From Nitrospirota bacterium (GTDB lineage: Bacteria > Nitrospirota > Thermodesulfovibrionia > Thermodesulfovibrionales > BMS3Bbin05): DNA of 64,000 nucleotides. Where the stretch lies: assembly GCA_020351835.1 (NCBI GenBank), contig CP070669.1:1286378-1350377 (forward strand), written 5' to 3'. Of this stretch, positions 38,362 through 54,742 are shown one piece after another; the stretch's first letter is position 1, and each line of letters opens with the position of its first letter. Below the pieces are notes generated by a model that was not told the origin of the DNA, searched no databases, and saw only the letters and a program-made list of their open reading frames with translations. Position numbers and translations under genes: made by a program.

Positions 38362-38586
38362 ATGGCTAAGACAGAATTGGATTTCAGAGGAATGTCGTGC
38401 CCTATGCCTATCATGAAGACCGCTATGGCTTTCAAGAAAGCCACGTCAGGAGATGTGTTCACTATCATGTGTGATGACCCGGGCTTCGAACCTGATATAA
38501 AGGCATGGGCCAGTGAGACCGGTAATGTGCTTGACAGCATTGAGAAGAAGGACAAGGATATTATCGCTACCGTAACAAAGAAATAA
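38362..38586 (+). CDS. tusA: TusA/SirA-family sulfurtransferase
   Basis: 74 aa with the CPMP motif (LDFRGMSCPMPIMK). AAGGAGG lies before the ATG. Confidence 0.85.
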   Translation: MAKTELDFRGMSCPMPIMKTAMAFKKATSGDVFTIMCDDPGFEPDIKAWASETGNVLDSIEKKDKDIIATVTKK

Positions 38587-38604
38587 GTGCAAAAGGAGCA
38601 TACG

Positions 38605-39189: not shown

Positions 39190-39212
39190 CACATTATTAG
39201 AAGGAGAAGGAA

Positions 39213-39578
39213 ATGGCAAACAAGGTTGTGTATGTAATATCGGGAGACCCGAGAGAAAAAACAGAGAACGTATCCGCCGTATTTGCCCAGGCCCTTACTG
39301 CTATTTCGTTCGATTACGATTGCGAGATATTCCTGATGGATGAGGCGGTAAAGTCGGTGGTAAAGGGAGCCATTGACGATGTTAAGTTCAAGACGTTCGA
39401 GCCCATTGTCGAGATGATGTCCAACTATATGGATATGGGCGGCAAGTTGTATGTCTGTCACCCCTCAAGCGATGCGCGTGATATACACGAGGGTGACTGC
39501 ATAGAAGGTATCGAGTTCGTAAACGCGTCAAAATTGCTCGAAAGCGGAAAGAAAGCTGACGCTGTGTTCACTTTCTAA
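39213..39578 (+). CDS. DsrE-like small sulfur-relay protein (copy 1)
   Basis: 121 aa (VVYVISGDP...LYVCHPSSDAR...FVNASKL). GGAGAAGG lies before the ATG. It is a paralogue of 51836-52201. Confidence 0.55.
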   Translation: MANKVVYVISGDPREKTENVSAVFAQALTAISFDYDCEIFLMDEAVKSVVKGAIDDVKFKTFEPIVEMMSNYMDMGGKLYVCHPSSDARDIHEGDCIEGIEFVNASKLLESGKKADAVFTF

Positions 39579-39597
39579 GATTTGGTCTTTTTTACAA

Positions 39598-39630
39598 GGG
39601 CGGCTCATTAGAGTCCGCCCATTTTTTTTG
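39598..39630 (+). terminator. Rho-independent terminator
   Basis: GGGCGG...CCGCCC stem followed by a run of 8 T. Confidence 0.8.
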
Positions 39631-39659
39631 CCGGCACTCAGCCGGTAAAGGGAGGAATC

Positions 39660-40619
39660 ATGAAAAAGCTTTTGATAATCCTAATCGCATTATTTGCGAT
39701 CCTGCCTCTGTCGGTAGCATATGCAGAGAAATATGGTGTGTACGTTAAGGCGGTGGAGAAGGTCGAAGGCTCCTTCGAAGACACTATCAGCAGTGTAGAG
39801 GGGGCACTGAAGAAGAACGGGTGGGAGGTACTTGCATCTAACGGGAACTCCGTCCCGGAGGCTTGCGATCTCAGGGCACATACCATCGTTATAAAGTCTG
39901 ATGAGTATACGGAGGCCGTTATGGGCCACGGTCCGCTTTCATCTTTCGCGGTCCCGCTCAGAGTAGGGATCTACGAGGATGAGACAGGTCTTAACATAGC
40001 ATTTACCAACCCGGCATCCCTGAACAGGACGATACTCGGTGATAAGGTAGAAGCAGAGCTGTCAGTTAACACCATGAACAGCCTCTCCGACATACTTGCC
40101 GGAGCGGTCAAAGGAACCGCGGTTAAGGAACAGATAGGGCAGCTCAGGAAGAAAGGAAAGGTCGGCGGCATGGGAGGAGGAGACTTCAAGAACATGATGG
40201 TCGAGTTCTTCTCCGGTGAAGGAAAGACAGTCGCCGGGATCACAGAAAAGGTCAAAGAAGGTATTGAAGCGAACGAGAAGGGCTGGAAACTGGTGTATGA
40301 AATGGCTCTCGACAGCGGCAATATAATGGTACTCGGTGTTAACGAGGCAGAAATGGAAGCCCGCGCATACAGGATAGCAGGAGAAAAGAGAGAGTCTAAA
40401 GACAACAGCTGTCCAGGCATAGACCACGGCCCTGCTTTTCCGATAGAAGTAATGGTCTATGAGACCGATGAGGCTGTGAAGATAATTACCCTGGATGGCA
40501 TGTACAGGATGAAGGTATACTTTGAAGATGCAGGAATGTGGGCGTTCATGAAGAACATGGCGATGCCTGCCGGTATAATATCCGAGATAGAGGAGATGAG
40601 CATATCCAAGCTGAAGTAG
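39660..40619 (+). CDS. Secreted DUF302-like protein with a large insertion
   Basis: Signal peptide MKKLLIILIALFAILPLSVAYA. The N-terminal SFEDTISSVEGALKKNGWEVLA...PLRVGIYED and the C-terminal PIEVMVYETDE are reminiscent of DUF302. Confidence 0.45.
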   Translation: MKKLLIILIALFAILPLSVAYAEKYGVYVKAVEKVEGSFEDTISSVEGALKKNGWEVLASNGNSVPEACDLRAHTIVIKSDEYTEAVMGHGPLSSFAVPLRVGIYEDETGLNIAFTNPASLNRTILGDKVEAELSVNTMNSLSDILAGAVKGTAVKEQIGQLRKKGKVGGMGGGDFKNMMVEFFSGEGKTVAGITEKVKEGIEANEKGWKLVYEMALDSGNIMVLGVNEAEMEARAYRIAGEKRESKDNSCPGIDHGPAFPIEVMVYETDEAVKIITLDGMYRMKVYFEDAGMWAFMKNMAMPAGIISEIEEMSISKLK

Positions 40620-40729: not shown

Positions 40730-41272
40730 ATGGATGATATATCCCTTCATATAATGGACATTATCGAGAACTCCACCCGTGCGGAAGCATCAAGCATATT
40801 GCTCAACATTGTTGTCAATAAGAAAACTAACATGTTGTCCATTGACATAAAAGATAACGGAAGGGGAATGGACAATGAAGAGGTTATCCAGGCTCAGGAC
40901 CCTTTTTATACAACTAAGACCAAGAAGAAGTTCGGGCTTGGCATATCACTTTTGAAGCAGGCATCAGAAGAAGCGGCAGGCACTTTCGCTCTGATCTCCG
41001 ACAAGGGTTCCGGAACGCACATATCCGCAACATTCCAGTACGATCATATAGACAGAAAACCTCTGGGTGACATCGCAAAAACGTTCTATATACTTATAGC
41101 ATCATATCCCGAAGTAGATCTGCTTCTTAGCTATAAGATAGATAACAGGTCTTTCGATATCGATACGGCTGAGCTCAGGAAAGAGCTTGAGGATATTCCA
41201 ATTACGGCACCCAATGTGTTAAAAACCCTAAAGAACCATATAGCCGGCGGTGTCATGACGGTAGAAAGGTAG
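40730..41272 (+). CDS. Stand-alone histidine-kinase-like ATPase (HATPase_c, no H-box)
   Basis: 180 aa. N-box IIENSTRAEA, G1 DNGRGM, FYTTK, G2 GLGISL. Confidence 0.65.
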   Translation: MDDISLHIMDIIENSTRAEASSILLNIVVNKKTNMLSIDIKDNGRGMDNEEVIQAQDPFYTTKTKKKFGLGISLLKQASEEAAGTFALISDKGSGTHISATFQYDHIDRKPLGDIAKTFYILIASYPEVDLLLSYKIDNRSFDIDTAELRKELEDIPITAPNVLKTLKNHIAGGVMTVER

Positions 41273-41282: not shown

Positions 41283-41663
41283 ATGGCGGACAACAGGATA
41301 CTCGTAATAGACGATGAGGCCATTGTACGCGTAAGCTGCCAGAGGGTCCTGACCCCGGAGGGTTTCGATGTCATTGTTGTACCTTCGGGAAGGGAGGCCA
41401 TAGACAGGCTGGAGAAAGAGAAGTTCGACCTTGTGCTGACCGACCTGAAGATGCCGGATATGGACGGGCTAGAGGTCCTTAAGACCATCAAGTCGAGGTG
41501 GCCGGAGCTCATTGTTATAATCATAACCGGATACGGTACTATCTCAACCGCCGTTCAGGCTATTAAACTGGGCGCGTTCGAATATATCGAAAAGCCTTTC
41601 ACACCCGAGGATATACTTAATATCGTAAAGAAGGCAATCGCTTCTGCTGCAAATGATGCCTGA
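41283..41663 (+). CDS. Single-domain response regulator (REC only)
   Basis: 126 aa: ILVIDDEA, TDLKMPDMDG, IIITGYG, YIEKPF. Confidence 0.9.
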   Translation: MADNRILVIDDEAIVRVSCQRVLTPEGFDVIVVPSGREAIDRLEKEKFDLVLTDLKMPDMDGLEVLKTIKSRWPELIVIIITGYGTISTAVQAIKLGAFEYIEKPFTPEDILNIVKKAIASAANDA

Positions 41664-42837
41664 TCCTCTAAAGTCATCATCCGGACGCCTGTTGATCATA
41701 ATTATCGTTATCGTCCTGTACCTTATCGCGAACGCAGGCCTGTCACCTTCGAACCGGAAAACATTATCGAATGCCGGCCCTGCCCCTGTATCCGAGGTCC
41801 CGTCCGCGGAACCCAAGCCCATGTTCCGGGCATCCTTCATTAATGAACATATACCCGGCACTATATCCCACGTATCATCTATAGCTCCCGCAGGCAAGGA
41901 TAAAATGATAGCCGCATGGTATTCGGGTTCACGCGAAGGCGCAAGGGATGTTGCTATATATCACTCCTTCTATGATCTCATTACAAAAGAATGGTCATCT
42001 CCAGAGGTGCTTATCAACAGGGAGCAGGCCTCTGCCGAACTTGGAAGGTACGTAAAGAAACTTGGCAATCCCGTTGTTATCTCGGGGCCGAAAGGCAGGT
42101 TATGGCTGTTCTACTCGTCGGTAACATTAGGAGGATGGTCAGGCTCAACGATAAATTACAAGATATCAAAAGATCAGGGCAAGACCTGGTCAAAGAGCAG
42201 AAAACTCATACTCAGCCCGTTCCTCAACCTCACCAATAACGTAAAGAACGGTCATATCAGCCTTTCCGAGAGTTCATTTATACTCCCTGTATACCACGAG
42301 TTCATTCACAAATACTCCCAGGTCCTGCTAGTCAGCAACATCGATGAAGAGCCTTATTATGAGATATCCAGGATGACCCGCTCTATGAAGGCCATTCAGC
42401 CTTCTATACTGAAAGGTAGCGGGGAAAGACTTAAAGCGTTCTTCAGGAACATGGGTACGGGCCCCGATAGACCAATATTAAGGTCAGACAGTGATGCCCT
42501 CGGTCTTCGATGGTCCGACATATCGGCTACCTCGCTGCCAAACCCTAACTCCGGGTTCAGCATGACGGTCTCGGCTAACGGTTCCTTTGTCGGGATCATA
42601 AATTATTCTTCTCAAGACAGAAGTGATCTTTCAATTGTGATCTCCCGTGATGAAGGAGATAACTGGAAGAGGATAGCCATCCTTGAGAACAGTAAAGGCC
42701 AAGAGTACTCTTATCCTTTCATCGTTAAGGACCGTAACGGCCTTTACCACGTGACATATACCTATGAAAGAAAGAAGATCAGGCATGTGGTCTTCAATGA
42801 GAAATGGCTGATGGCCAAAGCAGGAGGCATTGATTAA
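41653..42837 (+). CDS. Membrane-anchored BNR/sialidase-like beta-propeller protein
   Basis: 394 aa with an N-terminal TM segment and BNR (SxDxGxTW-type) motifs SKDQGKTWS and SRDEGDNWK. Overlaps the REC gene by 11 nt. Confidence 0.65.
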   Translation: MMPDPLKSSSGRLLIIIIVIVLYLIANAGLSPSNRKTLSNAGPAPVSEVPSAEPKPMFRASFINEHIPGTISHVSSIAPAGKDKMIAAWYSGSREGARDVAIYHSFYDLITKEWSSPEVLINREQASAELGRYVKKLGNPVVISGPKGRLWLFYSSVTLGGWSGSTINYKISKDQGKTWSKSRKLILSPFLNLTNNVKNGHISLSESSFILPVYHEFIHKYSQVLLVSNIDEEPYYEISRMTRSMKAIQPSILKGSGERLKAFFRNMGTGPDRPILRSDSDALGLRWSDISATSLPNPNSGFSMTVSANGSFVGIINYSSQDRSDLSIVISRDEGDNWKRIAILENSKGQEYSYPFIVKDRNGLYHVTYTYERKKIRHVVFNEKWLMAKAGGID

Positions 42838-43441
42838 AGAGCTATTTGTATATATTGCACCGGTCCTGATAACGGCACTATGTCTGGATCTGGCGATATC
42901 CAGAACATCTATACGGGAACATGGCCGTTATATCAGATGCGCCGCAATGCTAATAGCCTCTATGGTAATTTCCCTGGTACCTGTTGGGGGGTTATCATTG
43001 TCACAATTGATACTATCTTTCAATCCGGTGTTCTCCATCGGCAGTATATCACTTCTCATGGCAATCCTTGCAGGAAGAGTAACGGGCAGGAGACTATTAG
43101 AAGATAAGGACCTTCTGCTCCTGTCGACATGGAACATCTGCTTAGCCCTGTTCCTTTATCTGTCCTATCTTAATTTTATTGATATCGATCTTTACTATAT
43201 GGGATACGGGTCCGCAATACCTGTAACCCTTACCTCACTGTTCACGGTCGTGCTCATCATTTTCAGAAGCCCTGTGTCATGGATATTCATCTCTTGTATA
43301 GCTGCATATGATCTCAGGCTCCTACCTTCCGGGAACTTTTTCGACTATATTGTGGATGTACCTCTGTTCGCGGCTTCTCTGGTAATAGTCTCAGTGTATA
43401 TTGTAAAATCATTAAATCCAAAACAGGCGATCCCGCAATAA
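42830..43441 (+). CDS. Polytopic membrane protein, unknown function
   Basis: 203 aa with about 6 hydrophobic segments. Overlaps the BNR gene by 8 nt. Confidence 0.55.
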   Translation: MIKELFVYIAPVLITALCLDLAISRTSIREHGRYIRCAAMLIASMVISLVPVGGLSLSQLILSFNPVFSIGSISLLMAILAGRVTGRRLLEDKDLLLLSTWNICLALFLYLSYLNFIDIDLYYMGYGSAIPVTLTSLFTVVLIIFRSPVSWIFISCIAAYDLRLLPSGNFFDYIVDVPLFAASLVIVSVYIVKSLNPKQAIPQ

Positions 43442-43477
43442 CAGTGATCCCTCATCCGGGCAGAGTGAAACATATCT

Positions 43478-45106
43478 ATGACAGACCTTAAAAAGAATGA
43501 CCTGAAGGACAGGATATTGATCTTCCTGTCGCTCAGTTTTATCGTGCTTTATTTCTTCAAGCTGGGCTTCCCGAGCATCTGGCACCCAAATGAGGGTTTC
43601 TACGCTGAGGTACCGCGTGAGATGATAGAGAGCGGGGACCTTTTGACGCCTTATTTCAATTATGAGTTCCGTTTCCAGAAGCCACCTCTTCTGTACTGGC
43701 TGATACTTCCATGGCAGCTGTTGCTCGGACAGAGCGAGATAGCGGTCAGGCTTCCGTCTGCCTTGATGGCCGCCGGAGGTGTGTTCCTTACGTTCTGGCT
43801 GGCAAGTACCGTATGGAATGATAAAAGGGCAGGCCTGATATCCGCGGCTATCATCGGCTCGGCATTCGATTACAATACTGCGGCACGCTATGGTTCACCC
43901 GAAATGCTCCTTACGGTCCTCATGACCGCAAGCCTTGTAGTGTTCTACAAGTGGCATATGGATAACGGAAAGCACAAGAAGTACTGGCTCCTCTTGTTCT
44001 ATGCCATCTGCGGCCTGTCCACCCTTGCCAAGGGCCCGATAGGAATAATACTGCCCTTCCTGGTGATAGTACCCTACTTTCTTTTAAAAAAGGATATTAA
44101 AGAACTCCTGAAGGTTTTCTCTGTTGGTGGTGCAGCCATATATCTGCTTGTATCTGTACCTTGGTATCTCTTAATGGTCCAGAAACACGGCGCTGATTTC
44201 TATAACGTCGTCCTCGGAGAGAATGTCGGAAGGTTCGTTTCGAAAAAGAGCGGCACTTCCAACTACCTGTTCTACTTCGGGGTCCTGCCCTGGAACTTCT
44301 TCCCGGGCTCGGTATTTATAGTTCCGGCCTTCATATGGTTGAGAAATATTGTGAAGCGCGATACCGCTGTTCTCTACCCTGTCGTATGGTTTGCATCAGT
44401 TTTTATCTTCTTTAGTTTTTCAAGGTCAAAACTTCCGACCTACATATACCCTCTGTTCTCTCCTCTTGAAGTAATAACAGGGGGATGGATAAGCTCGGCC
44501 CTGCGAGATAACGGCAGACAGGGTGCGGTACTATCCTGGGTTTCTCCTCTTATCCCGGTAACTGTTATTGCGGGTGTAATCTGGATAAGAAGCTACCTTC
44601 CCGGTATAAGCTCAGTGTATATAGGGATACTCATCTTTCTGCTATCATGGAGCATCTGGACCGTCAAGGAAAAGGACAGGTTCGGCTCATTTGCTGTCAG
44701 TATGTTCGCGATGACTGTGTTCATAGTAATATTCCTTCAGAGCATTATCCCTCAGATAGAGAACAGTGCCAGGCATTATAAAGAGATAGCGGCAAAAGTG
44801 GCCGGCGAAGACCCGAAGAAGGAGCTACCCTTCTACGGCTATAAGATATTCAAAGAGAACCTTCCTTTCTACCTGGAAAGGAAGATGAGATCGCTTTCGC
44901 TGGATGAGGATAAGATGAACAGGTTCTTTTCTGATAATGACGCATTGGTAATGATGAGGAGCGATCTGTACAGAGAGAAGTTCAGTGAAAGTGCAAAGAA
45001 GGTCATCTGGGAGGGACCCTTTTATCACAAGTCCGAGTCCAGGTTCATGCGTTATCTGATAGATATCAAGAACGACAGGATCGAGGACTTCGTCATAATA
45101 AGGTAA
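43478..45106 (+). CDS. Glycosyltransferase family 39 (ArnT/PMT_2-like, undecaprenyl-phosphate-sugar dependent)
   Basis: 542 aa polytopic protein (EGFYAEVPREMIESGD...FQKPPLLYWL, LAKGPIG). Confidence 0.8.
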   Translation: MTDLKKNDLKDRILIFLSLSFIVLYFFKLGFPSIWHPNEGFYAEVPREMIESGDLLTPYFNYEFRFQKPPLLYWLILPWQLLLGQSEIAVRLPSALMAAGGVFLTFWLASTVWNDKRAGLISAAIIGSAFDYNTAARYGSPEMLLTVLMTASLVVFYKWHMDNGKHKKYWLLLFYAICGLSTLAKGPIGIILPFLVIVPYFLLKKDIKELLKVFSVGGAAIYLLVSVPWYLLMVQKHGADFYNVVLGENVGRFVSKKSGTSNYLFYFGVLPWNFFPGSVFIVPAFIWLRNIVKRDTAVLYPVVWFASVFIFFSFSRSKLPTYIYPLFSPLEVITGGWISSALRDNGRQGAVLSWVSPLIPVTVIAGVIWIRSYLPGISSVYIGILIFLLSWSIWTVKEKDRFGSFAVSMFAMTVFIVIFLQSIIPQIENSARHYKEIAAKVAGEDPKKELPFYGYKIFKENLPFYLERKMRSLSLDEDKMNRFFSDNDALVMMRSDLYREKFSESAKKVIWEGPFYHKSESRFMRYLIDIKNDRIEDFVIIR

Positions 45107-45287
45107 TAGCGGCATGCCGCAATTTGAGTGTATATTATAAAATCCTATTGTTTTCAAAGCCTTACAGGACAGGAGATCAGGGGGAGTATATTTTCTTTAT
45201 ACTTGTCATTAATTTCGCAAATTTATGCTGGAAATTAAATCTTTTAAAAACAGGGCTTTATACATCCTGCTAAACCATGCCTTGACC

Positions 45288-45303
45288 TGGCATGCGCTTT
45301 GCT
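45288..45303 (+). promoter_or_regulatory. Sigma-54 (-24/-12) promoter
   Basis: TGGCATGCGCTTTGCT versus the consensus TGGCACG-N4-TTGCW. The GG-N10-GC spacing is exact, with a single mismatch. It lies 32 nt upstream of the ATG at 45335. Confidence 0.75.
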
Positions 45304-45334
45304 CTTAATATCTTAACTGGAAAGGAGGTTACCT

Positions 45335-46105
45335 ATGTCTAAAGAGAAGTCACGAATATTGGTTCTAGATGATGATCCGGTCGTTACACTGAGCTGCAAG
45401 CGTATCCTTGGTGCAGAAGGTTATGACATCACGACGGTCGATAAAGGTGAGGATGCTCTCAATAAGCTTTCCAAGGAGGAGTATGACCTCCTGATATCTG
45501 ACATTCGTCTGCCCGATATCAATGGAATCACGGTCCTAAAAGAGTCCAAGGTTATCCAGCCTAGCACTGATGTAGTAATAATTACCGGATACCCCACCCT
45601 TGAGGACGCTAAGGAATCGATAAGGCTTGGTGCGTTCGAATATATCGAGAAGCCCTTCACGCCCGATTTCATGATGAACGTCGCAAAGAAGATATTTGAT
45701 AAGAGAGGCTGGATACTTAGGCAGGCCTATATAGAGGAGTTCAAGGATTCGGTAGTCCCCCTTAGGGACCAGAAGAACCCGGTCATATTTTATAAAGAAG
45801 GTATATGGGCCCGCCCGGTGAAGAACGGAGTATGGGAGATGGGCTGTGATATAAGAGATGATATGGTAAGCGGTGAGATGCTTTACGTTGATTACATTAG
45901 AGACCTTGACGTGGTCAAAGCGGGAGAGCCTTTCGCTCGGCTCCTTACAGGATCGGGAAAGATCAGGGAGCTTAACTCTCCGATGACAGCTGAGATCAAG
46001 GAATTGAACCCGAAGGCAAATGATGTCATCATCTCATTGCAGAACGAACATGCATCTGAAGGCTGGCTGGTTTGGCTGGCACGGGTATTCCCACTGGAAT
46101 TATAG
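45335..46105 (+). CDS. Response-regulator receiver fused to a GcvH-like (lipoyl/biotinyl-type) domain
   Basis: REC: ILVLDDDP, SDIRLPDING, IITGYP, YIEKPF. The C-terminal part aligns by eye with glycine-cleavage H (FYKEGIWAR/YSKEHEWLR; GEMLYVDYI...VKAGEPFARLLTGSGKIRELNSPMTAEIKELN; EGWLVWL). Confidence 0.7.
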   Translation: MSKEKSRILVLDDDPVVTLSCKRILGAEGYDITTVDKGEDALNKLSKEEYDLLISDIRLPDINGITVLKESKVIQPSTDVVIITGYPTLEDAKESIRLGAFEYIEKPFTPDFMMNVAKKIFDKRGWILRQAYIEEFKDSVVPLRDQKNPVIFYKEGIWARPVKNGVWEMGCDIRDDMVSGEMLYVDYIRDLDVVKAGEPFARLLTGSGKIRELNSPMTAEIKELNPKANDVIISLQNEHASEGWLVWLARVFPLEL

Positions 46106-46150
46106 CTATAAAACTTTGAAAATTAATGATCAATATAAAGGAGGATAAGA

Positions 46151-47014
46151 ATGGCAGGCAACATACTTGTAGTGGATGATGAGCCTGTAGTCATAGTGAG
46201 TTGCGAGAGGATACTGACCCCTGAAGGATATTCCGTAAAGGGTGCTTCTTCCGTTGATGAGGCGATCGGCCATCTTCAGAACGGTGATTACGATCTTGTT
46301 ATCACGGACCTGAAGATGCCTAACAAAGGCGGGCTGGACCTCATCAAGTGGTTAAGGGATAACAACAGTAAGGCCGGCATAGTTGTGATCACCGGATATC
46401 CGTCACAGGAGACGATAAAGGATGCTCTACACATGGGCATCGTAGATTACCTTCCGAAACCTTTCTCGCCGGCACTCCTTATAGACGTAACCGCAAAGGC
46501 AATATCGTTCGTAAAGTCGAAAGGGATCGAAGAGGTCACTTCTGAGGAGCAGGAGATAACTGCCAAAGCCGAGGAGATAAAGAACGTTATCGTATCGAAC
46601 AAGGACAGGCCGGGAGGTCTTATTCCCGTGCTGCAGCAGGTCCAGGAGATACTTGGCTATCTTCCGCCGGCAGTTCTGAAACTTATAGCGCGCGGCCTTA
46701 ACTTACCCGTAAGCGAAGTTCATGGCGTAGTGTCGTTCTATTCTTTCTTCACTATGAAACCAAAGGGCAAGCACAATGTCCGTGTATGCATGGGTACTGC
46801 ATGCTACGTGAAGAGAGCTACCGAGATACTCGATAAGCTGAAAGATATCCTCGGCATAGAAGAGGAGGAAGTAACTGAGGACAAGCAGTTCTCACTTGAA
46901 ACGGTAAGGTGCCTGGGTGCCTGCGGTCTTGCACCGGTCGTGGTGGTCGATCATGATACTCATGGCTCGGTCGATCCGGTCAAAGTGTCTGGCCTGCTTG
47001 AGGAGTACAACTAA
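46151..47014 (+). CDS. Response-regulator receiver fused to a NuoE/HndA-type [2Fe-2S] subunit
   Basis: REC: ILVVDDEP, TDLKMPNKGG, VVITGYP, YLPKPF. A linker is followed by a NuoE fold: LIPVLQQVQEILGYLP, VSFYSFF, VRVCMGTACYV, RCLGACGLAPVVVVD. Confidence 0.85.
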   Translation: MAGNILVVDDEPVVIVSCERILTPEGYSVKGASSVDEAIGHLQNGDYDLVITDLKMPNKGGLDLIKWLRDNNSKAGIVVITGYPSQETIKDALHMGIVDYLPKPFSPALLIDVTAKAISFVKSKGIEEVTSEEQEITAKAEEIKNVIVSNKDRPGGLIPVLQQVQEILGYLPPAVLKLIARGLNLPVSEVHGVVSFYSFFTMKPKGKHNVRVCMGTACYVKRATEILDKLKDILGIEEEEVTEDKQFSLETVRCLGACGLAPVVVVDHDTHGSVDPVKVSGLLEEYN

Positions 47015-47026
47015 AAGGAGGATCTC

Positions 47027-47410
47027 ATGGCAAAACTGACAATAGATGAACTCAAAAAGCTGAAGGAACAATATAAGGACAAGACCCACCTGCGTGAGGG
47101 AGGGTCTACGGCAAAGGTAACGGTCCACATGGGAACATGCGGCCTGGCTGCTGGTTCGAGGGAGATAATGGATGCTCTCCTTGATGAGATCCAGAAGGCC
47201 AATGCATCGGAGGTTATGGTCACTACATCAGGATGTGCCGGTCTCTGCAGCAGGGAACCTATGGTCACTGTTGAAATGCTGGATGAGTCCCCTGTTAAGT
47301 ACGTAGACCTGACGGACGAGAAAATAAGAAAGATCTTTAAGGAACATATACGTGGTGGCAAGGTTGTGGAGGAATACGCTCTGGTAAGAGGATGCGAGAC
47401 ATCCTACTGA
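47027..47410 (+). CDS. HndB-type thioredoxin-like [2Fe-2S] ferredoxin
   Basis: 127 aa: VHMGTCGLAAGS...TSGCAGLCSREPMVTV. Confidence 0.75.
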   Translation: MAKLTIDELKKLKEQYKDKTHLREGGSTAKVTVHMGTCGLAAGSREIMDALLDEIQKANASEVMVTTSGCAGLCSREPMVTVEMLDESPVKYVDLTDEKIRKIFKEHIRGGKVVEEYALVRGCETSY

Positions 47411-47447
47411 TCAAAATGATAAATACCCATTGCTGGGAGGAGAATAA

Positions 47448-49283
47448 ATGGACAAAGTAAGATCAAATGTCATGCTCTGTGGCGGTACAGGATGCATAGC
47501 GACCGGTTCTCTTAAGGTAAAGGATGCCCTTGTTACAGAACTGAAGAAGCATAAGCTCTATGATCAGATAACCGTGACCCTCACGGGATGCAACGGTTTC
47601 TGCGCTCAGGGCCCGCTCGTCACGGTATTTCCCGAAGGTATCTTCTATGAAAAGCTGACCGCGGATGATATACCGTTCCTCGTCGAGGAGCATTTTCTGA
47701 AGGGAAGGCCCGTTGAGAAGTTCATGTACAAGGCACCTGAGGATAAATCGGCGGTACCCGCTATAAGCGAGATACCGTTCTTCAAGCACCAGGTGCTCAG
47801 AGCATTAAGGAACAAGGGAATAATCGATCCTGAAAAGATAGAGGAATACATTGCTCGGGACGGTTATATGGCCGCAGCCAAGGCACTGACCGAGATGAAG
47901 CCTGAAGATGTCGTGAAGGAGATGAAAGAGTCAGGCCTTAGAGGACGCGGCGGTGCCGGATTCCCCACCGGGCTTAAGTGGGAGCTCTGTGCGATGTCTA
48001 AGGGCGACCTTAAATATATCCTCTGTAACGGTGACGAGGGTGACCCTGGTGCATTCATGGACAGAAGTATAATGGAGGCCGACCCTCATGTCGTCCTTGA
48101 GGGAATGATAATAGCGGCCAAGGCCATAGGCGCCTCAAAGGGATATATCTATGTAAGGGCAGAATATCCTCTTGCAGTTGAAAGGCTTCAGAAGGCTATC
48201 GACCAGGCAAAGGACTATGGTCTCCTGGGTGAGAATATCCTTAACACAGGGTTCAATCTTGATATAGAGCTTTATCTTGGCGCTGGGGCTTTTGTCTGCG
48301 GTGAAGAAACAGCTCTGATGAGATCACTTGAGGGTAAGAGAGGTATGCCGATACCGCGTCCCCCGTTCCCGGCCCAGAAAGGTCTGTGGGGAAAGCCTAC
48401 GGTTCTAAATAATGTCGAGACCTACGCTAACATCCCACCTATTATCCTTAACGGCGGTGAATGGTATAAGAGTCTTGGTACCGAGAAATCCACAGGCACA
48501 AAGGTCTTCGCACTTACCGGTGCCGTTAATAATATCGGCCTCATCGAGGTTCCGATGGGTATACCTCTCAGGACCATTATCTACGATATCGGTGGCGGTA
48601 TACGAAAGGGCAGAAAGTTCAAAGCGGTTCAGCTCGGTGGCCCTTCGGGCGGATGTGTTCCCGAGCACCTTCTGGACACGCCTGTAACTTATGAGGATAT
48701 CGTACAGACCGGAGCCATCGTAGGTTCAGGCGGTATGGTCGTTATGGACGATTATAACTGTATGGTAAGCGTTGCACGTTTCTTTCTCGACTTCACGACT
48801 GAAGAGTCATGTGGTAAATGCCCGCCATGCAGGATCGGGACCAAGGTCATGAGGGACAAGCTGGCTGATATTACTGAGGGACGGGGGCAGGAAGGAGATG
48901 TCGAGCTTCTCCAGGACCTTGCAAAGGATATTATCAATACATCACTTTGCGGACTTGGCCAGACCGCACCTAACCCTATCCTTACAACGATAAAATATTT
49001 TAAGGACGAGTATGAATCACATATTCATGATAAATGGTGCAAGGCCGGTGTATGTACTGACCTTGCGACGTTCTACATCGACGAGGAAGCATGTAAGGGC
49101 TGCACGGTATGCGCAAAGAACTGTCCGCAGGAATGTATCGCCGGTGAAAAGAAGAAACCACATATCATCGATCAGGAAAAATGTGTCAAGTGCAGGACAT
49201 GCTACGAAAAGTGTAAGTTCAATGCCGTAAAGGTAGGGCCTGCGAACATGTTCGACAAGAAGGATGAGGAGGTGCAGGTATGA
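47448..49283 (+). CDS. HydB/HndC-type NuoF-like flavoprotein (2Fe-2S + FMN/NAD(P)H + N3 cluster + 2x[4Fe-4S])
   Basis: 611 aa: CGGTGC...GCNGFCAQGP; GLRGRGGAGFPTGLKW; SCGKCPPCRIG; CKGCTVCAKNCP and CVKCRTCYEKC. Confidence 0.85.
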   Translation: MDKVRSNVMLCGGTGCIATGSLKVKDALVTELKKHKLYDQITVTLTGCNGFCAQGPLVTVFPEGIFYEKLTADDIPFLVEEHFLKGRPVEKFMYKAPEDKSAVPAISEIPFFKHQVLRALRNKGIIDPEKIEEYIARDGYMAAAKALTEMKPEDVVKEMKESGLRGRGGAGFPTGLKWELCAMSKGDLKYILCNGDEGDPGAFMDRSIMEADPHVVLEGMIIAAKAIGASKGYIYVRAEYPLAVERLQKAIDQAKDYGLLGENILNTGFNLDIELYLGAGAFVCGEETALMRSLEGKRGMPIPRPPFPAQKGLWGKPTVLNNVETYANIPPIILNGGEWYKSLGTEKSTGTKVFALTGAVNNIGLIEVPMGIPLRTIIYDIGGGIRKGRKFKAVQLGGPSGGCVPEHLLDTPVTYEDIVQTGAIVGSGGMVVMDDYNCMVSVARFFLDFTTEESCGKCPPCRIGTKVMRDKLADITEGRGQEGDVELLQDLAKDIINTSLCGLGQTAPNPILTTIKYFKDEYESHIHDKWCKAGVCTDLATFYIDEEACKGCTVCAKNCPQECIAGEKKKPHIIDQEKCVKCRTCYEKCKFNAVKVGPANMFDKKDEEVQV

Positions 49284-51763
49284 TAGAGCTCACTATCGAC
49301 GGAAAAAAGGTTTCTGTACCTAAAGGCACAACAATAATAAATGCTGCAAGGGAGATCGGTATCTATATACCGAACCTCTGTTACGATAAGCGTCTTAAAC
49401 CATACGGCGGATGCAGGCTATGTGTTGTAGAGGTCGAGGGCCAGAGAAAACTGCTTGCCGCATGCTCTACCCCGGCCGAGAACGGCATGGTGGTGCAAAC
49501 GAACACACCTACCCTTCAGAAGGCAAGAAAGACCGTGCTGGAACTGCTTCTTATCCATCACCCGCTGGATTGCCCGGTGTGTGACAAGGCCGGTGAGTGC
49601 AAGCTCCAGGACCTTGCATATGAGTACGGTTCAACAGAAAGCCGCTTTGCCGGTGAAAGAAAGAATGATCCGGAGGCGACAGACAGTCCGCTTATAGTAA
49701 GGAATCCCAACAGATGTATTCTTTGCGGTAAATGCGTAAGGGTTTGCAGAGATCACCAGGGTGTCGGTGCGATAAATCTCATAGGCAGAGGGTTCAAGAC
49801 GAAGATCAGCCCCGCCTTTGAAGAGACCCTCGATTGCGAGTTCTGCGGACAGTGCATAGATGCATGCCCGGTAGGAGCTCTCGGAAGCAAGCCTTATGCT
49901 CATAGCGCAAGGGCATGGTTCCTTGAGGAACAGGACAACATCTGCCCGTACTGCTCTGTAGGTTGTACTGTCACTTATGACATAAGGGAAGAAAAGATAC
50001 TTCGCGCAAGAGGTGTGGAAGGGAAGGGGGTGAACAACGGAGACCTCTGCGGAAAGGGAAGGTTCGGTTTCGATTTTATTTATTCCGACAACAGGCTAAG
50101 GAAACCCCTTATGAAGAAGAACGGCGCACTCGAGGAAACATCATGGGAAGAGGCGCTGTATTTCGTATCTAACAAACTTAATGAAATAAAGGAGAGCAAG
50201 GGCGGTGATTCCATAGGAGCGATAGGATCACCTCGCGCAACGCTTGAGGATAATTACATCTTTCAGAAGTTCATGAGGGATGTAGTAGGAACGAACAACA
50301 TAGATTCTTCTGCGAGGTTAGGGTACGCAAAGGTCGTTAAGGGCATAGAGATGTCGTTCGGCATCAAATCTCAGCCGATCAAGCTGGATTCACCGATAGG
50401 CAAAGATTCCGTTCTTGTTGTCGAATCGGATATAACCTCTACACATCCTATATGGGGACTGCAGTTCCTTCAGGCAATGAGAGAGGGATCTAAACTGATC
50501 GTAGTTGAGCCGAGGGAAACAAAGCTTGCGCGGAATGCGTCAACATGGCTAAAGATGAGGCCTGGAACATCTGTAGCCTTCCTGAACGGCCTTGCAAAGC
50601 TCGCCATCACAGAGGGACTTGTTTACAATAACGAAACAATTATGTCAACGGAGGGCTATGACGAACTGGAAAAGACATTAAAGGACTATACTCCGGAGAA
50701 GGTTTCGGAGATCACGGGAATTGATAAGGAAGTGTTCGTTAAGAGCGCATTGGAGTTCCTCAAGTCTGAATCCAGAATGATCGCCCTGACCCTTACAAAC
50801 TCTGAGAACAGCAAGGGTCTTGATACTATCCTTGCCGCGGCCAATCTGGTAATGCTGACGGGGGACGGGCCAGCCGCTCTTCAGATACCGTCCGACTATT
50901 CGAATACGACCGGCATGTGGCAGATGGGGATATCCCCGGACCATGGTGCAGGACTGAAGGACATCGAGGGAGAAGCGGGCAAGAACGTTGCCGATATGCT
51001 TTATAGATCGGGCGAGCTGAGCGCCCTCTACATAATGGGCGAGGACCCGATCGTTACATTCCCCGATTCATCATCCATCAGTGACACCCTTGGTTCTCTC
51101 GACCTTCTTGTTGTTCAGGACATCAGGCTGACAGAAACGGCCAAGCTTGCTGATGTTGTCCTCCCGGCCGCCAGCTGGGGAGAGAAGGACGGCACCTTTA
51201 TTAACGGCAGCGGCCTGCCACAGCCGATAAAGAAGATGGTTCCTGTGACCGGGGACTCAATCCCCGACTGGCAGATAATGAGGAACCTTGCCCGTGTCAT
51301 GCAGGCGGATCTTGGTGCGGCCGATCTTCGCTCCATACAGAACGAGATAGCCGAGATCGGAGTTGAAGAGGGTGTGAAGAAATGGAAGTTCAATCCCGTT
51401 AAGCAGGAATTCGGAGAAAACGTCGATACGAGCTATCCTATCATGCTAGTCACCGGAAACGTAATGCAGCACTCGGGAGAGCTCTCGGTCATGTCAAAGA
51501 GCCTTAGCCACGTCCTTTCTGACGCGTTCATACAGATCAACCCGGCTGATGCCGAGAAAAGCAAAATTCATGACGGAGCATTTGTAAAGATCACGTCTTC
51601 AAGGGGTGAGGTGTTCATAAAGGCGAGGGTATCGGACGAGGTGCCAGAGGGAATGCTGTTCGTCCCGGTCCACTTCCCTCATGCGAGGGTTAACTCTCTG
51701 ACATATGTATCCGCTAACGGAAGTAACTCCCTGACCGCCGTAAAAGTGGAGCCCCAGAACTAG
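49280..51763 (+). CDS. NuoG-paralogous Fe-S / MopB-like subunit lacking the Mo-ligand Cys/Sec-His
   Basis: 827 aa, colinear with the nuoG in this window. Contains HPLDCPVCDKAGEC, CILCGKCVRVC, CEFCGQCIDACP and CPYCSVGC. The position of ARV(U/C)H in formate dehydrogenases reads ARLGY. Confidence 0.75.
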   Translation: MIELTIDGKKVSVPKGTTIINAAREIGIYIPNLCYDKRLKPYGGCRLCVVEVEGQRKLLAACSTPAENGMVVQTNTPTLQKARKTVLELLLIHHPLDCPVCDKAGECKLQDLAYEYGSTESRFAGERKNDPEATDSPLIVRNPNRCILCGKCVRVCRDHQGVGAINLIGRGFKTKISPAFEETLDCEFCGQCIDACPVGALGSKPYAHSARAWFLEEQDNICPYCSVGCTVTYDIREEKILRARGVEGKGVNNGDLCGKGRFGFDFIYSDNRLRKPLMKKNGALEETSWEEALYFVSNKLNEIKESKGGDSIGAIGSPRATLEDNYIFQKFMRDVVGTNNIDSSARLGYAKVVKGIEMSFGIKSQPIKLDSPIGKDSVLVVESDITSTHPIWGLQFLQAMREGSKLIVVEPRETKLARNASTWLKMRPGTSVAFLNGLAKLAITEGLVYNNETIMSTEGYDELEKTLKDYTPEKVSEITGIDKEVFVKSALEFLKSESRMIALTLTNSENSKGLDTILAAANLVMLTGDGPAALQIPSDYSNTTGMWQMGISPDHGAGLKDIEGEAGKNVADMLYRSGELSALYIMGEDPIVTFPDSSSISDTLGSLDLLVVQDIRLTETAKLADVVLPAASWGEKDGTFINGSGLPQPIKKMVPVTGDSIPDWQIMRNLARVMQADLGAADLRSIQNEIAEIGVEEGVKKWKFNPVKQEFGENVDTSYPIMLVTGNVMQHSGELSVMSKSLSHVLSDAFIQINPADAEKSKIHDGAFVKITSSRGEVFIKARVSDEVPEGMLFVPVHFPHARVNSLTYVSANGSNSLTAVKVEPQN

Positions 51764-51784
51764 GATATTCTAATTAGCACAAAA

Positions 51785-51817
51785 GCCCCGGTCCTAAAAA
51801 GGGCCGGGGCTTTCTTT
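51785..51817. terminator. Bidirectional hairpin terminator between convergent genes
   Basis: GCCCCGGTCC-TAAAAA-GGGCCGGGGC (10 bp with one G-U pair), with T-rich flanks on the plus strand and A-rich flanks upstream. Confidence 0.7.
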
Positions 51818-51835: not shown

Positions 51836-52201
51836 TCAGTAAGTTATAACAGCTCGTGCGTCTCCGGTAAGCGTTATAAGCTTGGAGGCATTAACGAACT
51901 CGTCAACCTCATCGATGCAGTTGTCCTTGTTCATTTTGCGGGCATCAGAAGAAGGATGGCATACATATACCTCTCCTCCCATTTCTTTGTAGTGACCAAG
52001 CATTATCTCAAGGCTCTCATATGTTTTGAACTTTACATCTTTAAGGTATCCCTTCTTTACAAAGTTAACGCCGTCATCAACAAAGAACATGCTGCAGCCG
52101 AAATCCATACTTAGAGCGGTCAGAGCCTGCGCAAAAGCACTTGATACCAGCTCGCATTTCTCCTTAGGGTCCGCAGATATGATGAATACATAAGATTCCA
52201 T
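51836..52201 (-). CDS. DsrE-like small sulfur-relay protein (copy 2)
   Basis: MESYVFIISADP...VYVCHPSSDAR...FVNASKL. Roughly half the positions are identical by eye to 39213-39578. The ATG at 52201 follows AAGGAGG. The track start at 52207 is a TTG. Confidence 0.55.
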   Translation of the reverse strand: MESYVFIISADPKEKCELVSSAFAQALTALSMDFGCSMFFVDDGVNFVKKGYLKDVKFKTYESLEIMLGHYKEMGGEVYVCHPSSDARKMNKDNCIDEVDEFVNASKLITLTGDARAVITY

Positions 52202-52272
52202 TTGCAAAGCCTCCTTGTTGCTTTTTTATATACAATTTAAAACCCCGCGCGATATAACGTCATTATATACGA

Positions 52273-52787: not shown

Positions 52788-53528
52788 ATGCTCTCTGTTG
52801 AGAACCTTTCTGTAAGCGTCGAAGGCAGGCAGATCCTGCATGATCTTAACCTGCATGTCATGACCGGGGAAACAGTCGCTCTCTTCGGTCCTAACGGCTC
52901 CGGCAAGACCTCGCTTCTGAAGGCCATCATAGGGGTACCTTCATACAGTATTGAGTCCGGGAAGATCATCTTTAAAGGAAATGACTTAACCCGCCTCAGC
53001 ATGCATGAACGGGCAGTGCTCGGCATCGGGATGTCCTTTCAGAGACCGCCTGCCATAAGAGGGGTCAAGCTTAGAGACCTGCTTGTTACATGTGTTAAAA
53101 AGAGAGGCGGGGTAGATCCGGGCGATATTAACGACATGATAATGAGGCTTGGCCTCAGTGACCTTGCGGAGAGAGATATCAATAAGGGATTTTCTGGCGG
53201 GGAGATCAAGCGTTCAGAGCTTATACAGCTTCAGGCCCAGGGCCCCGACCTTCTGCTGCTTGACGAGCCGGATTCTGGAGTAGACCTGATAAGCATTGAG
53301 CTTGTAGGAAGCGTTATCAACGAGCTACTTCAAAAGGACAGAAAGAAGGACAGAAGGGAAAAAGCGGGGCTAATTATCAGCCATGCGGGGCATATCCTTG
53401 ACTATGTAAATGCCGACAGGGCATACGTTATGCTTAACGGCACTCTTCAATGCTCCGGAAATCCTCGTGAGCTCCTGGATGACATAATAGAAAAAGGCTA
53501 TGAAGGATGCACTGTATGCAAAGGGTAG
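52788..53528 (+). CDS. sufC: Fe-S cluster assembly ATPase SufC
   Basis: 246 aa: Walker A GPNGSGKTS, signature FSGGEIKR, Walker B LLLLDEPDSGVD. Confidence 0.88.
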   Translation: MLSVENLSVSVEGRQILHDLNLHVMTGETVALFGPNGSGKTSLLKAIIGVPSYSIESGKIIFKGNDLTRLSMHERAVLGIGMSFQRPPAIRGVKLRDLLVTCVKKRGGVDPGDINDMIMRLGLSDLAERDINKGFSGGEIKRSELIQLQAQGPDLLLLDEPDSGVDLISIELVGSVINELLQKDRKKDRREKAGLIISHAGHILDYVNADRAYVMLNGTLQCSGNPRELLDDIIEKGYEGCTVCKG

Positions 53529-54742
53529 ACCATGAAAAGAGGGCATTAAGGGCCGTAAGAAAGAGAGCCGATTTCGGGCCCGATCTCGACATCGGTTCCT
53601 ATGAGCACGAGACAAAAGAACTTGATAAGGTCAGGGCGCTCAACGACCTGCCGGGTGACATTGCCGGGGCATCCACAGATGTCGGTATTGAGACCGACGA
53701 AAGCTGCAGATCAGGCACTTTTTTTCAGATAAATCACTCGGTCGTACTGTCAACGGTATACCAGGATGGTCTGGAGATCATGAGCATAACAGAGGCGCTT
53801 CAGAAGTATGACTGGCTCTCCGGGTACCGGTGGCAAGCAATGAAGGAGGACGCAGACAAGTTCACAGCTGAAGCAGAGTTGCACCAGCACCAGGGATACT
53901 TTATAAGGGCATTACCTGGTTCGAAAGTTGAGCTCCCCCTCCAGGCCTGTCTTTTCATGGACCAGGACTCACTCATACAGAACGTTCACAATATAATTAT
54001 TGCCGAAGAGGGCTCCGAGCTTCATATAATTACGGGCTGCGCGGCGGCTGCAAGTGTGAACCGAGGGCTTCATATCGGCATATCTGAGTTCTACATCAAA
54101 AAGAACGCAAAAATGACCTTCACAATGATCCATAAATGGGCCGATAATATGGCCGTAAGACCAAGGTCAGCAGCCATTATAGATGAGAGCGGTCTTTTCC
54201 TGAGCAACTACGTATGCATCAAACCTGTCAGAACGCTTCAGATGTATCCTACGGTCTATTGCACAGGCAAGAACTCGACTGCTCGCTTCAATGCCGTTCT
54301 GGTCGCTCATGAAGGGTCCGATATGGATGTTGGTTCGAGAGTATACCTGAGAAAGGAAGGAAGCAGGGCAGAGGTCATCACCAGAGCTATATCCGAAGGA
54401 GGGAACATCTTCGCAAGAGGCCATCTTATTGGAGAGGTGCCTGACATCAAAGCCCATCTTGAGTGCCGCGGTCTGATCCTTTCAGAGAAGGGCTCTATTC
54501 ATGCAATACCCGAGCTCGAGGGGAAGGTGAGCAATGTAGATATGTCACATGAGGCCGCTGTAGGAAAGATCGCGGAGGAGGAGATACAGTACCTTATGGC
54601 CAGGGGCCTGAGCGAGGAGGAGGCAACGTCTGCCATAGTCAGAGGCTTCCTTGACATTGAGGTAAAAGGACTGCCTTCGCAACTTCAGGCAGAGATGAAA
54701 AAAGCCTTACATCCGAAAGAACTTAAGGACAGGGTATTGTGA
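53507..54742 (+). CDS. SufB/SufD-family Fe-S scaffold protein
   Basis: 411 aa with the family C-terminus: ECRGLILSEKGSIHAIPELEG...DMSHEAAVGKIAEEEIQYLMARGLSEEEATSAIVRGF. The start overlaps the end of sufC. Confidence 0.8.
   Translation: MHCMQRVDHEKRALRAVRKRADFGPDLDIGSYEHETKELDKVRALNDLPGDIAGASTDVGIETDESCRSGTFFQINHSVVLSTVYQDGLEIMSITEALQKYDWLSGYRWQAMKEDADKFTAEAELHQHQGYFIRALPGSKVELPLQACLFMDQDSLIQNVHNIIIAEEGSELHIITGCAAAASVNRGLHIGISEFYIKKNAKMTFTMIHKWADNMAVRPRSAAIIDESGLFLSNYVCIKPVRTLQMYPTVYCTGKNSTARFNAVLVAHEGSDMDVGSRVYLRKEGSRAEVITRAISEGGNIFARGHLIGEVPDIKAHLECRGLILSEKGSIHAIPELEGKVSNVDMSHEAAVGKIAEEEIQYLMARGLSEEEATSAIVRGFLDIEVKGLPSQLQAEMKKALHPKELKDRVL

Follow-up and report, generated by a model that had tools for sequence, protein, structure and literature searches.

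A Bfu-type redox module with a receiver domain on its NuoE-like subunit, encoded near complex I genes in Nitrospirota

Why should a bacterium endowed with ordinary complex I genes encode a second module for the entry of electrons from NADH and ferredoxin, and why should the NuoE-like subunit of that module carry the receiver domain of a two-component system? The question is raised by a stretch of 64,000 nucleotides from a sulfate-reducer-like Nitrospirota bacterium (assembly GCA_020351835.1, contig CP070669.1, positions 1,286,378 to 1,350,377 of the forward strand), which is called the window here and whose first letter is position 1. The locus in question is a five-gene operon on the plus strand (45288-51813, from promoter to terminator), encoding a receiver protein with a GcvH-like C-terminal half (RECX), the receiver-NuoE fusion (REC-NuoE or BfuC), a small HndB-like subunit, a long NuoF (BfuB) and a NuoG paralogue (BfuA). 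The answer that we favour, with a probability of about one half, is that the operon specifies a Bfu-type module derived from Nuo-Bfu complex I, which may serve as an alternative N-module for the neighbouring complex I chassis and would be controlled at two levels by one two-component pathway.

The fusion itself is encoded by a single open reading frame (ORF2, 46151-47014, plus strand, 287 amino acids), in which a receiver domain (Response_reg, PF00072, residues 5-112, 95 bits) precedes a NuoE-type domain (2Fe-2S_thioredx, PF01257, residues 144-286, 165 bits). A sequence-only reading of the window, made from the letters and a list of their open reading frames, had proposed that both parts are intact, and this proved correct: among 76 sequences with identities as low as 59%, neither the receiver residues D9, D10, D53, T81 and K103 nor the NuoE cysteines C213, C218, C254 and C258 vary. 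Strong purifying selection acts on the NuoE-linked receiver, which possesses the acidic pair, the acceptor Asp, the Thr/Ser, the Lys and the fold of a phosphorylatable domain. When 5.8 billion proteins were searched, at least 120 full-length homologues (59-100% identity) were among the matches listed; all of those listed but one (P0054) contain both PF00072 and PF01257, and those bearing a taxon name belong to Nitrospirota/Thermodesulfovibrionia. Automatic database names for the homologues include 'NADH:ubiquinone oxidoreductase subunit E/CheY-like chemotaxis protein' and 'NADP-reducing hydrogenase subunit HndA'. P0054 is the deposited NCBI annotation of the very gene discussed here, a 193-residue 'NAD(P)H-dependent oxidoreductase subunit E' beginning at Met95; the receiver is hidden in the deposited record because the annotated gene has been shortened to 193 residues. 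The full 287-residue frame, with its strong Shine-Dalgarno sequence, is the conserved form. An assembly or frameshift artefact at the junction, a danger raised together with the original proposal, is ruled out by the continuous frame, by that strong ribosome-binding signal and by the occurrence of both domains in the at least 120 independent clusters listed.

Among 185,579 species, each represented by one genome, a search for the architecture found the fusion at 15 loci, in one of which it is truncated by the end of a contig while the other 14 are full-length; all 15 are labelled Nitrospirota. The window's proteins were mapped by tblastn onto 82 related loci (given L numbers below), and the core order RECX, REC-NuoE, HndB, BfuB, BfuA is conserved, with the RECX or the HndB-like gene undetected in a few of them. 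The architecture is therefore not peculiar to the present organism, being widespread in Thermodesulfovibrionia and recurring in other Bfu enzymes. Annotated homologues occur in Dissulfurispira and in magnetotactic Nitrospirota. The supposition that it had not been described before holds in that no paper on the fusion was found in the full-text literature searched; in a phylogenomics paper on complex I, the only match to CheY is an entry in a pathway table.

Outside this clade, a scan of 1.84 billion representatives brought up about 14 further REC-NuoE clusters at 30-46% identity, and both domains were present in all ten of the distant clusters tested. One such protein (about 32% identity) is encoded in a HydABC [FeFe]-hydrogenase operon (L087, GCA_964437495.1, 2577-7327), with genes for a Cache/HAMP kinase, Rex and a stand-alone receiver as neighbours. 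Another (also about 32% identity) belongs to a Bfu operon that is followed by HdrA-, MvhD- and HdrBC-like genes (L086, JGI 3300056889, 8001-14752). Because the fusion is also found in [FeFe]-hydrogenase and Hdr-linked Bfu operons, receiver-fused BfuC is a rare but recurrent design across Bfu enzymes. A metagenomic protein of 578 residues (P0361) combines two receivers and a NuoE domain in a single polypeptide, as if a RECX-like protein had been joined to REC-NuoE or a stop codon had been missed.

The subunits encoded with the fusion indicate to which family of enzymes the module belongs. BfuB (ORF4, 47448-49283, plus strand, 611 amino acids) is a long NuoF of the HydB/HndC type, with an N-terminal 2Fe-2S_thioredx domain, Complex1_51K (PF01512, 165 bits), SLBB (24.2 bits, below the cut-off of 27), NADH_4Fe-4S (PF10589, 109 bits) and two C-terminal Fer4 domains (PF00037/Fer4, twice); an FMN/NAD(H) site and an N3-type 4Fe-4S cluster are assigned to it. 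Its residues 4-594 align with the bifurcating HydB 7q4v_B (863 bits over 591 residues, the SLBB region included), and the score against the NiFe-HydB 7t2r_B is 828 bits. The proposed match in subunit composition with Bfu/HydABC enzymes is thereby borne out, BfuB aligning end to end with a solved bifurcating HydB. The canonical NuoF of the window (27046-28305, 419 amino acids) is 47% identical to BfuB over the core only; as had been noticed, it has neither the N-terminal nor the C-terminal extension, and it stops before the region of the His/Cys site. According to the published definition of the Bfu family, BfuB carries the domains IPR011538, IPR019554, IPR019575 and IPR017896, BfuC is NuoE-like (IPR002023) and BfuA has at least 2Fe-2S and 4Fe-4S ferredoxin-type domains (PMC9304861). 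The same study reports that an extra His/Cys site is kept in virtually all BfuB proteins and absent from non-bifurcating homologues, and proposes a mechanism in which the cluster domain of BfuC moves between the flavin and this site (PMC9304861). In the alignment to 7t2r_B, residues C438, T476, H525, C531 and C536 of the present BfuB fall on the published ligand positions of the B2 site, with Thr at position 476, as in FeFe enzymes. BfuB, BfuC and BfuA all have the domains required, and BfuB has the His/Cys ligands; judged by its sequences, then, the module is the BfuABC core of a Bfu (HydABC-type) enzyme as published.

BfuA (ORF5, 49280-51763, plus strand, 827 amino acids) consists of Fer2_4, NADH-G_4Fe-4S_3, Fer4_Nqo3, Molybdop_Fe4S4, Molybdopterin and Molydop_binding domains. 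It contains five Fe-S cluster motifs, whose Cys/His ligands are all conserved in 119 homologues, and it is 35% identical to the window's own NuoG. At the positions of the catalytic residues of FdsA, Cys386 is replaced by Gly (Gly348, invariant in 119 of 119 homologues), His387 by Tyr or Phe (Tyr349 in the window protein) and Arg587 by Ala or Ser (Ser538 in the window protein), so that the Cys/Sec, His and Arg of a formate dehydrogenase are all missing. The loss of this active site makes the protein NuoG-like, and on these residues BfuA is best described as a non-catalytic NuoG paralogue with a molybdopterin-like domain devoid of an active site. No third-substrate site was identified anywhere in the operon.

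The two remaining products are less easily named. The HndB/HydD-like small thioredoxin-like ferredoxin subunit (ORF3, 47027-47410, plus strand, 127 amino acids) scores 25.3 bits against 2Fe-2S_thioredx (cut-off 24.8), and its gene is present in more than 50 related loci. It keeps three cysteines (C38, C70 and C74), and the place of the first cysteine of the thioredoxin-like 2Fe-2S motif is occupied by His34, found in 45 of 57 sequences; a cluster in this subunit, if there is any, might have His ligation. RECX (ORF1, 45335-46105, plus strand, 256 amino acids) has a clear receiver (Response_reg, 92 bits), whose residues D13, D14, D56, T84 and K106 are invariant in 24 sequences. Its C-terminus matches GCV_H weakly (E=0.0095, which misses the Pfam cut-off); for many orthologues a PF01597 match is precomputed, and in Foldseek this half matches H-proteins with a probability of 1.0 and a template-modelling (TM) score of about 0.64 on the target. 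The AlphaFold2 model (mean predicted local distance difference test, pLDDT, of 67) confirms the folds and gives no inter-domain geometry, the receiver half being poorly modelled from a shallow alignment. The fold of an H-protein is present and the conserved lipoyl-lysine is not: its position is taken by K, A, Q, R, H or P across the 24 orthologues, which rules out that RECX is a lipoylated GcvH. The GcvH-fold half is most simply seen as a domain for contacts with other proteins, appended to a canonical receiver, and RECX is probably a phospho-dependent regulator or adaptor.

The layout of the operon agrees with what had been read from the sequence. Its five genes, at 45335-51763, are tightly packed; an AGGAGG-type Shine-Dalgarno sequence stands ahead of every start, ORF4 and ORF5 share an ATGA overlap (49280-49283), and the products are those that had been named (REC-GcvH-like, REC-NuoE, HndB-like, HydB-type long NuoF and NuoG paralogue). 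The near-consensus sigma-54 promoter claimed at 45288-45303 also stands. When both strands of the whole window were scanned for TGGCAC-N5-TTGCW (11 specified positions), the -24/-12 element TGGCATgcgctTTGCT on the plus strand, with 10 of 11 positions matched, was the sole match of at least 10/11. It has the GG-N10-GC of a sigma-54 promoter; similar elements lie 34-80 nt 5' of the orthologous RECX gene in nine loci (L001-L008 and L020), and the GG and GC are invariant across eight aligned upstream regions. Many independent assemblies show the same fusion, gene order and promoter element, which makes their association more than a matter of chance. Further upstream, 86 nt 5' of the -24 GG, lies the palindrome GTATA-N7-TATAC (45186-45202, plus strand), a candidate upstream activator site to which a sigma-54 activator is predicted to bind. 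The form GTATA-N6-9-TATAC has three matches in the window against 0.21 expected, and it occurs 100-200 nt 5' of RECX in ten loci, namely nine of the receiver clade and the window. In a scan for sigma-70 promoters, promoter-like matches were at or below the shuffled expectation. At the other end, an intrinsic-terminator-like hairpin (51782-51813, plus strand; 14-bp stem with nine GC pairs) starts 19 nt past the BfuA stop codon and was the one notable match of the terminator scan.

Genes that could operate this promoter are found elsewhere in the window. A membrane histidine kinase (HAMP-HisKA-HATPase; 31542-33218, plus strand), a candidate for the cognate kinase, is followed by a sigma-54-dependent response regulator of the NtrC type (REC-Sigma54_activat-HTH_8; 33187-34647, plus strand; Sigma54_activat 241 bits), a candidate activator of the 45288 promoter; an enhancer-binding protein gene and a conserved candidate upstream site are thus both at hand. 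The kinase has transmembrane segments at about residues 18-43 and 209-245, and the periplasmic domain of about 165 residues between them (about 44-208) bears the motifs CxxCH (residues 126-130) and Cx4CH (175-181). This sensor domain matches weakly the sensor-domain family of class 40H chemoreceptors. Because both haem-c motifs are strictly conserved in ten kinase orthologues that have diverged to 41-52% identity, the domain is likely to be a periplasmic redox sensor of the di-haem type, predicted to bind haem. A gene consisting of HATPase_c only (40730-41272, plus strand) and a stand-alone receiver, REC1 (41283-41663, plus strand), lie closer to the operon.

In related genomes these genes stand next to the module. 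The kinase directly adjoins it in nine loci (L001, L009, L010, L012, L014, L015, L019, L020 and L084), the activator gene is immediately 5' of it in L001, L002 and L020, and L001 displays the uninterrupted order kinase, activator, REC, RECX, REC-NuoE and onward. The HATPase_c-only gene and REC1 immediately precede RECX in L003 and belong to the cluster in L001, L009, L012, L014, L015, L019 and L020. The parts being contiguous in relatives, the window can be regarded as the same system split by insertions at 36685-40619 and 41653-45106. The four receivers of the window are paralogues of 34-41% identity that have in common an unusual S-C-x-R motif in helix alpha1, the receiver helix that carries kinase specificity. 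We infer that a single kinase may feed all four. The proposal of sigma-54 control at the level of transcription is strengthened by the conserved promoter and by the linkage of a cognate-looking activator and kinase; the kinase with its haem motifs, the third receiver and the DRTGG, HATPase and PHP genes described below had not figured in the sequence-only reading.

The tie to complex I rests on ancestry and on gene neighbourhood. As had been stated, a complete nuoA-N operon is present in the window (17069-31366, minus strand; recognized from its gene order, with Pfam matches for nuoE, nuoF and nuoG). It is divergent from the kinase gene, its NuoE (150 amino acids), NuoF (419) and NuoG (857) are without the extras of the module, and its Q and P modules are a candidate docking partner. 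The closest receiver-less relatives of the module (54-59% identity for NuoE, 68-71% for BfuB) are found in eleven Nitrospirota loci, where the order is nuoA-B-C-D, DRTGG, HATPase, DRTGG, PHP, HATPase, NuoE, HndB, BfuB, NuoG-like; nuoH comes next after the NuoG-like gene in nine of the eleven, those long enough to show it. Such an arrangement corresponds to the Nuo-Bfu complex I predicted by Schut et al., in which a Bfu-type N-module (BfuB clades 38 and 39) forms part of a complex I of 14 subunits and which is reported for Geobacter, Planctomycetes and Nitrospirae (PMC9304861). It is seen in the receiver-less loci L017, L022, L026, L028-L031, L033, L036 and L058 and not in the window, where about 14 kb lie between nuoA and the module, an operon of its own, and where nuoEFG is retained in the nuo operon. 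In a neighbour-joining tree of BfuB, computed without bootstrap, the receiver clade is monophyletic and groups with the Nuo-Bfu loci and a few loci without nuo genes nearby. These relationships suggest, as part of the explanation that we favour, that the module descends from the N-module of a Nitrospirota Nuo-Bfu complex I.

The module has also stayed close to nuo genes. It abuts nuoA in seven of 13 informative loci (the window, L001, L009, L011, L014, L015 and L019), mostly in divergent orientation, and in tandem in L011, with 84 nt between BfuA and nuoA. Canonical NuoEFG is retained in the nuo operon of the window and of L001, L011, L014 and L015. In L009, a metagenome-assembled genome of Thermodesulfovibrionales, the nuo operon runs from nuoD through a cyclic-nucleotide-binding gene to nuoH and has no nuoEFG; the protein encoded at the place of nuoEFG has 150 amino acids and a cyclic-nucleotide-binding domain (1796-2248, minus strand). 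The module had at first been called apparently soluble. That description is not supported: the nearest receiver-less relatives are nuo-embedded N-modules, and the module is found next to nuoA again and again, so that a partner complex in the membrane is no less likely than a soluble state.

In the explanation that we prefer, the operon would encode a flavin/iron-sulfur module of the Bfu type handling NAD(H) and ferredoxin, by bifurcation or confurcation, made up of REC-BfuC, the HndB-like subunit, BfuB and a catalytically dead, NuoG-like BfuA, with the REC-GcvH-like protein as a co-encoded accessory. Since BfuA is without an active site, the third redox partner would have to be another complex. 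The neighbouring NuoA-D/H-N chassis is the most likely one, because there is no third-substrate site, nothing is conserved downstream and the genes are linked. Docked there as an alternative N-module, the module would pass electrons from NADH and reduced ferredoxin to menaquinone. The membrane kinase would report the periplasmic redox state and phosphorylate the four paralogous receivers. Once phosphorylated, the sigma-54 activator would fire the 45288 promoter, while the receivers on BfuC, RECX and REC1 would act post-translationally, on assembly, on oligomeric state or on the mobile cluster domain of BfuC; the receiver of BfuC in particular might control the movement of that domain, oligomerisation or docking. 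Direct phospho-control of the module had been overstated in the sequence-only reading; it may reasonably be supposed, since the receiver residues are conserved and a kinase is linked.

Several observations tell against this explanation. Six loci with flanks of 8 kb or more (L004, L010, L013, L083, L084 and L085) have no nuo genes nearby, and where the adjacency exists it might have been inherited from an ancestor without any bearing on function. Canonical nuoEFG accompanies the module in most genomes, which means that complex I there can do without it. The identity of BfuA to the NuoG of the same genome, and likewise to the NuoG of Nuo-Bfu, is only 35-40%, so a docking interface is not to be assumed. 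The kinase and activator genes of the window are about 10.6 kb from the operon, with two unrelated gene blocks between. The AlphaFold2 model of REC-NuoE (pLDDT 77) recovers the (beta-alpha)5 topology of the receiver, with a short disordered segment (residues 125-130) linking it to the first helix of NuoE; the model does not pack the receiver on NuoE with confidence (predicted TM score, pTM, 0.43), and for that reason no structural mechanism is visible. Finally, some distant REC-BfuC proteins have degenerate receivers, in which the acidic pocket or the acceptor Asp is lost, implying that the domain can persist without phosphorylation.

The most serious rival, less probable in our estimate and yet far from negligible, is a stand-alone, soluble cytoplasmic NADH/ferredoxin oxidoreductase of five proteins, whose activity would be tuned by the receivers. 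Such an enzyme would either do without a third substrate or use its NuoG-like subunit to deliver electrons to some partner outside complex I, such as proteins of the Hdr/Qmo type or of sulfate reduction. In its favour, transmembrane segments are absent from all five proteins, and the five-gene core is self-contained, with its own promoter and terminator. Its neighbours are unrelated in L004, L013, L083 and L085, and in L084 it sits beside sat/aprAB; the canonical nuoEFG that most hosts already possess and the occurrence of distant REC-BfuC in soluble-type Bfu operons ([FeFe] hydrogenase, Hdr-like) would likewise suit a soluble enzyme. However, BfuA is without catalytic residues, and no conserved third-substrate gene was found 3' of BfuA, where the downstream genes differ at every locus; a purely soluble bifurcating enzyme would consequently miss its third reaction. 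A soluble enzyme also sits poorly with the nuo-embedded state of the closest receiver-less relatives, with the adjacency to nuoA in seven loci and in two arrangements, and with L009, where the module stands beside a nuo operon that has no other nuoEFG.

It is tempting to carry the preferred explanation one step further, to two interchangeable heads of complex I, although we regard this version as speculative and rather unlikely. The NADH-only NuoEFG head would be constitutive, whereas the sigma-54-induced Bfu head would confurcate electrons from NADH and reduced ferredoxin onto menaquinone. The haem-motif kinase would choose, by way of the activator, the head to be synthesised, and would govern the docking and activity of the Bfu head through phosphorylation of the BfuC receiver and RECX.

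Still less probable is the opposite view, that the receivers are structural, serving in docking or stabilisation, and never phosphorylated in the assembled enzyme, regulation being entirely transcriptional. A precedent can be found in mycobacterial complex I, where the subunit MSMEG_2064 has an occluded Asp63 (PMC10068793); the distant REC-BfuC proteins that have lost phosphorylation residues would fit this view, as would an AlphaFold2 model that offers no phospho-dependent mechanism. Yet the receivers at hand look functional, the DD pair, D, T and K, that is the five residues of the phosphorylation chemistry, being invariant in the 76 REC-NuoE sequences and likewise in the 24 of RECX. A purely structural role also accounts badly for the co-inheritance of a kinase and a stand-alone receiver with the module and for the alpha1 features common to the four receivers.

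Lastly, an NAD-dependent FdsABG-like or bifurcating formate dehydrogenase, with the 827-residue protein as its molybdo- or tungstopterin catalytic subunit, might be imagined from the fact that FdsA proteins of NAD-dependent formate dehydrogenases are the closest solved relatives of BfuA (462 and 446 bits) and that some sources name its homologues 'formate dehydrogenase alpha subunit', but it is hardly credible and indeed ruled out by the Gly, Tyr and Ser at the catalytic positions, by a score below the cut-off for the Fdh-alpha model TIGR01591 (466 against 666) where the NCBIfam NuoG equivalog passes (479.6 against 470), and by an operon in which no fdhD/fdsC/moa-type maturation genes were found.

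Some features of the neighbourhood deserve mention. Directly downstream of the activator lie genes for DRTGG, anti-sigma-like HATPase, DRTGG and PHP proteins (34619-36505, plus strand). Together with the HATPase_c-only gene, these DRTGG, HATPase, DRTGG and PHP phosphoesterase genes form a five-gene set that accompanies NuoE/HndB/BfuB across phyla (for example in L017, L022, L026, L047, L063, L065, L076, L077 and L082), inside Nitrospirota nuo operons and also beside loci in genomes labelled Bacillota or Bacteroidota. In the latter loci BfuA matches only over its N-terminal 200 residues or so and is probably of the hydrogenase type. No paper on the five-gene set was found in the literature searched. 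Of the two blocks that separate the signalling genes from the operon, the first (36685-40619) encodes a FadL-type outer-membrane protein, the product of an unknown ORF, a DsrE-like protein and an unknown membrane protein of 319 residues, and the second (41653-45106) a BNR-repeat protein, an unknown protein of 203 residues and a PMT/ArnT-type glycosyltransferase. DsrE/DsrF-like genes flank the region of the module on both sides (39213-39578, plus strand, and 51836-52207, minus strand); the second is encoded on the other strand immediately beyond the terminator, with SufC/SufBD genes (52788-54742) coming next. No tie between the DsrE/DsrF-like genes and the module was seen in related loci.

Enzymes of the Bfu/HydABC type are central to anaerobic energy metabolism, and the mechanism of their bifurcation is debated. 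The Bfu family is known; what is new here is a module derived from Bfu/Nuo-Bfu into which a two-component layer is built, and this suggests that such a signalling system switches a redox enzyme both directly and through its promoter. No post-translational regulation of Bfu/HydABC enzymes was described in the literature searched. A receiver on BfuC, inherited together with a kinase, therefore provides a concrete handle on whether signalling gates electron bifurcation, and the tie to nuo makes the hypothetical Nuo-Bfu complex and exchangeable N-modules approachable in Thermodesulfovibrionia. The haem-c motifs of the kinase suggest a link between the periplasmic redox state and the cytoplasmic balance of NADH and ferredoxin. 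If complex I does have interchangeable heads, a two-component system would here control a respiratory or bifurcating enzyme directly, and the same would extend to the receiver-fused HydC of some [FeFe] hydrogenases. Even if the receivers prove inert, the operon would still illustrate clearly how a module derived from Nuo-Bfu can become detached and stand under sigma-54 control.

Compared with structurally known Bfu enzymes (HydABC of Thermoanaerobacter kivui and Acetobacterium woodii, 7q4v and 8a5e; NiFe-HydABCSL, 7t2r; Thermotoga HydABC, 7p5h), the present module is alike in the domain set and His/Cys site of BfuB, the NuoE-like BfuC with four cysteines, the N-terminal 2Fe-2S/4Fe-4S domains of BfuA, the HndB/HydD-like subunit and the DRTGG/HATPase/PHP genes. 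In the paper on the Bfu family the terms 'response regulator', 'receiver' and 'CheY' do not occur (PMC9304861). Unlike those enzymes, the module has no hydrogenase, formate dehydrogenase or other third-substrate domain, and it has a receiver on BfuC, a co-transcribed REC-GcvH-like gene and sigma-54/two-component control. With Nuo-Bfu, itself only a prediction, it shares the non-catalytic, NuoG-like BfuA, the accessory genes and the frequent linkage to nuoA, but it forms a separate operon with its own promoter and bears the receiver. HndABCD, the NADP-reducing or bifurcating hydrogenase of Desulfovibrio fructosivorans, has its first three subunits in the order found here, HndA (NuoE-like), HndB (a small thioredoxin-like ferredoxin) and HndC (long NuoF); its HndD is an [FeFe] hydrogenase, against a NuoG paralogue in the present operon, and its HndA is not known to carry a receiver.

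A receiver has been tied to an NADH dehydrogenase before, in mycobacterial complex I, of which the orphan response regulator MSMEG_2064/Rv3143 is a subunit (PMC10068793, PMC9274095). There, too, the receiver protein is encoded with nuo genes. It is, however, a separate protein, bound close to NuoB where the peripheral arm meets the membrane arm; its Asp is buried and no kinase for it is known. Here, by contrast, the receiver is fused to NuoE at the distal tip of a Bfu-type enzyme and a kinase is co-inherited. The mycobacterial precedent indicates that associations between receivers and complex I exist, and also that the receiver might be structural only. The iron-sulfur subunit of a multi-subunit, flavin-based redox complex is, to our knowledge, not described as the output of a receiver, and the literature searched returned no such case. 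In response regulators with enzymatic output the receiver is N-terminal to an output domain that does not bind DNA, and in branched pathways several receivers are served by one kinase. The present system resembles both, with canonical N-terminal receivers, several of them linked to one kinase.

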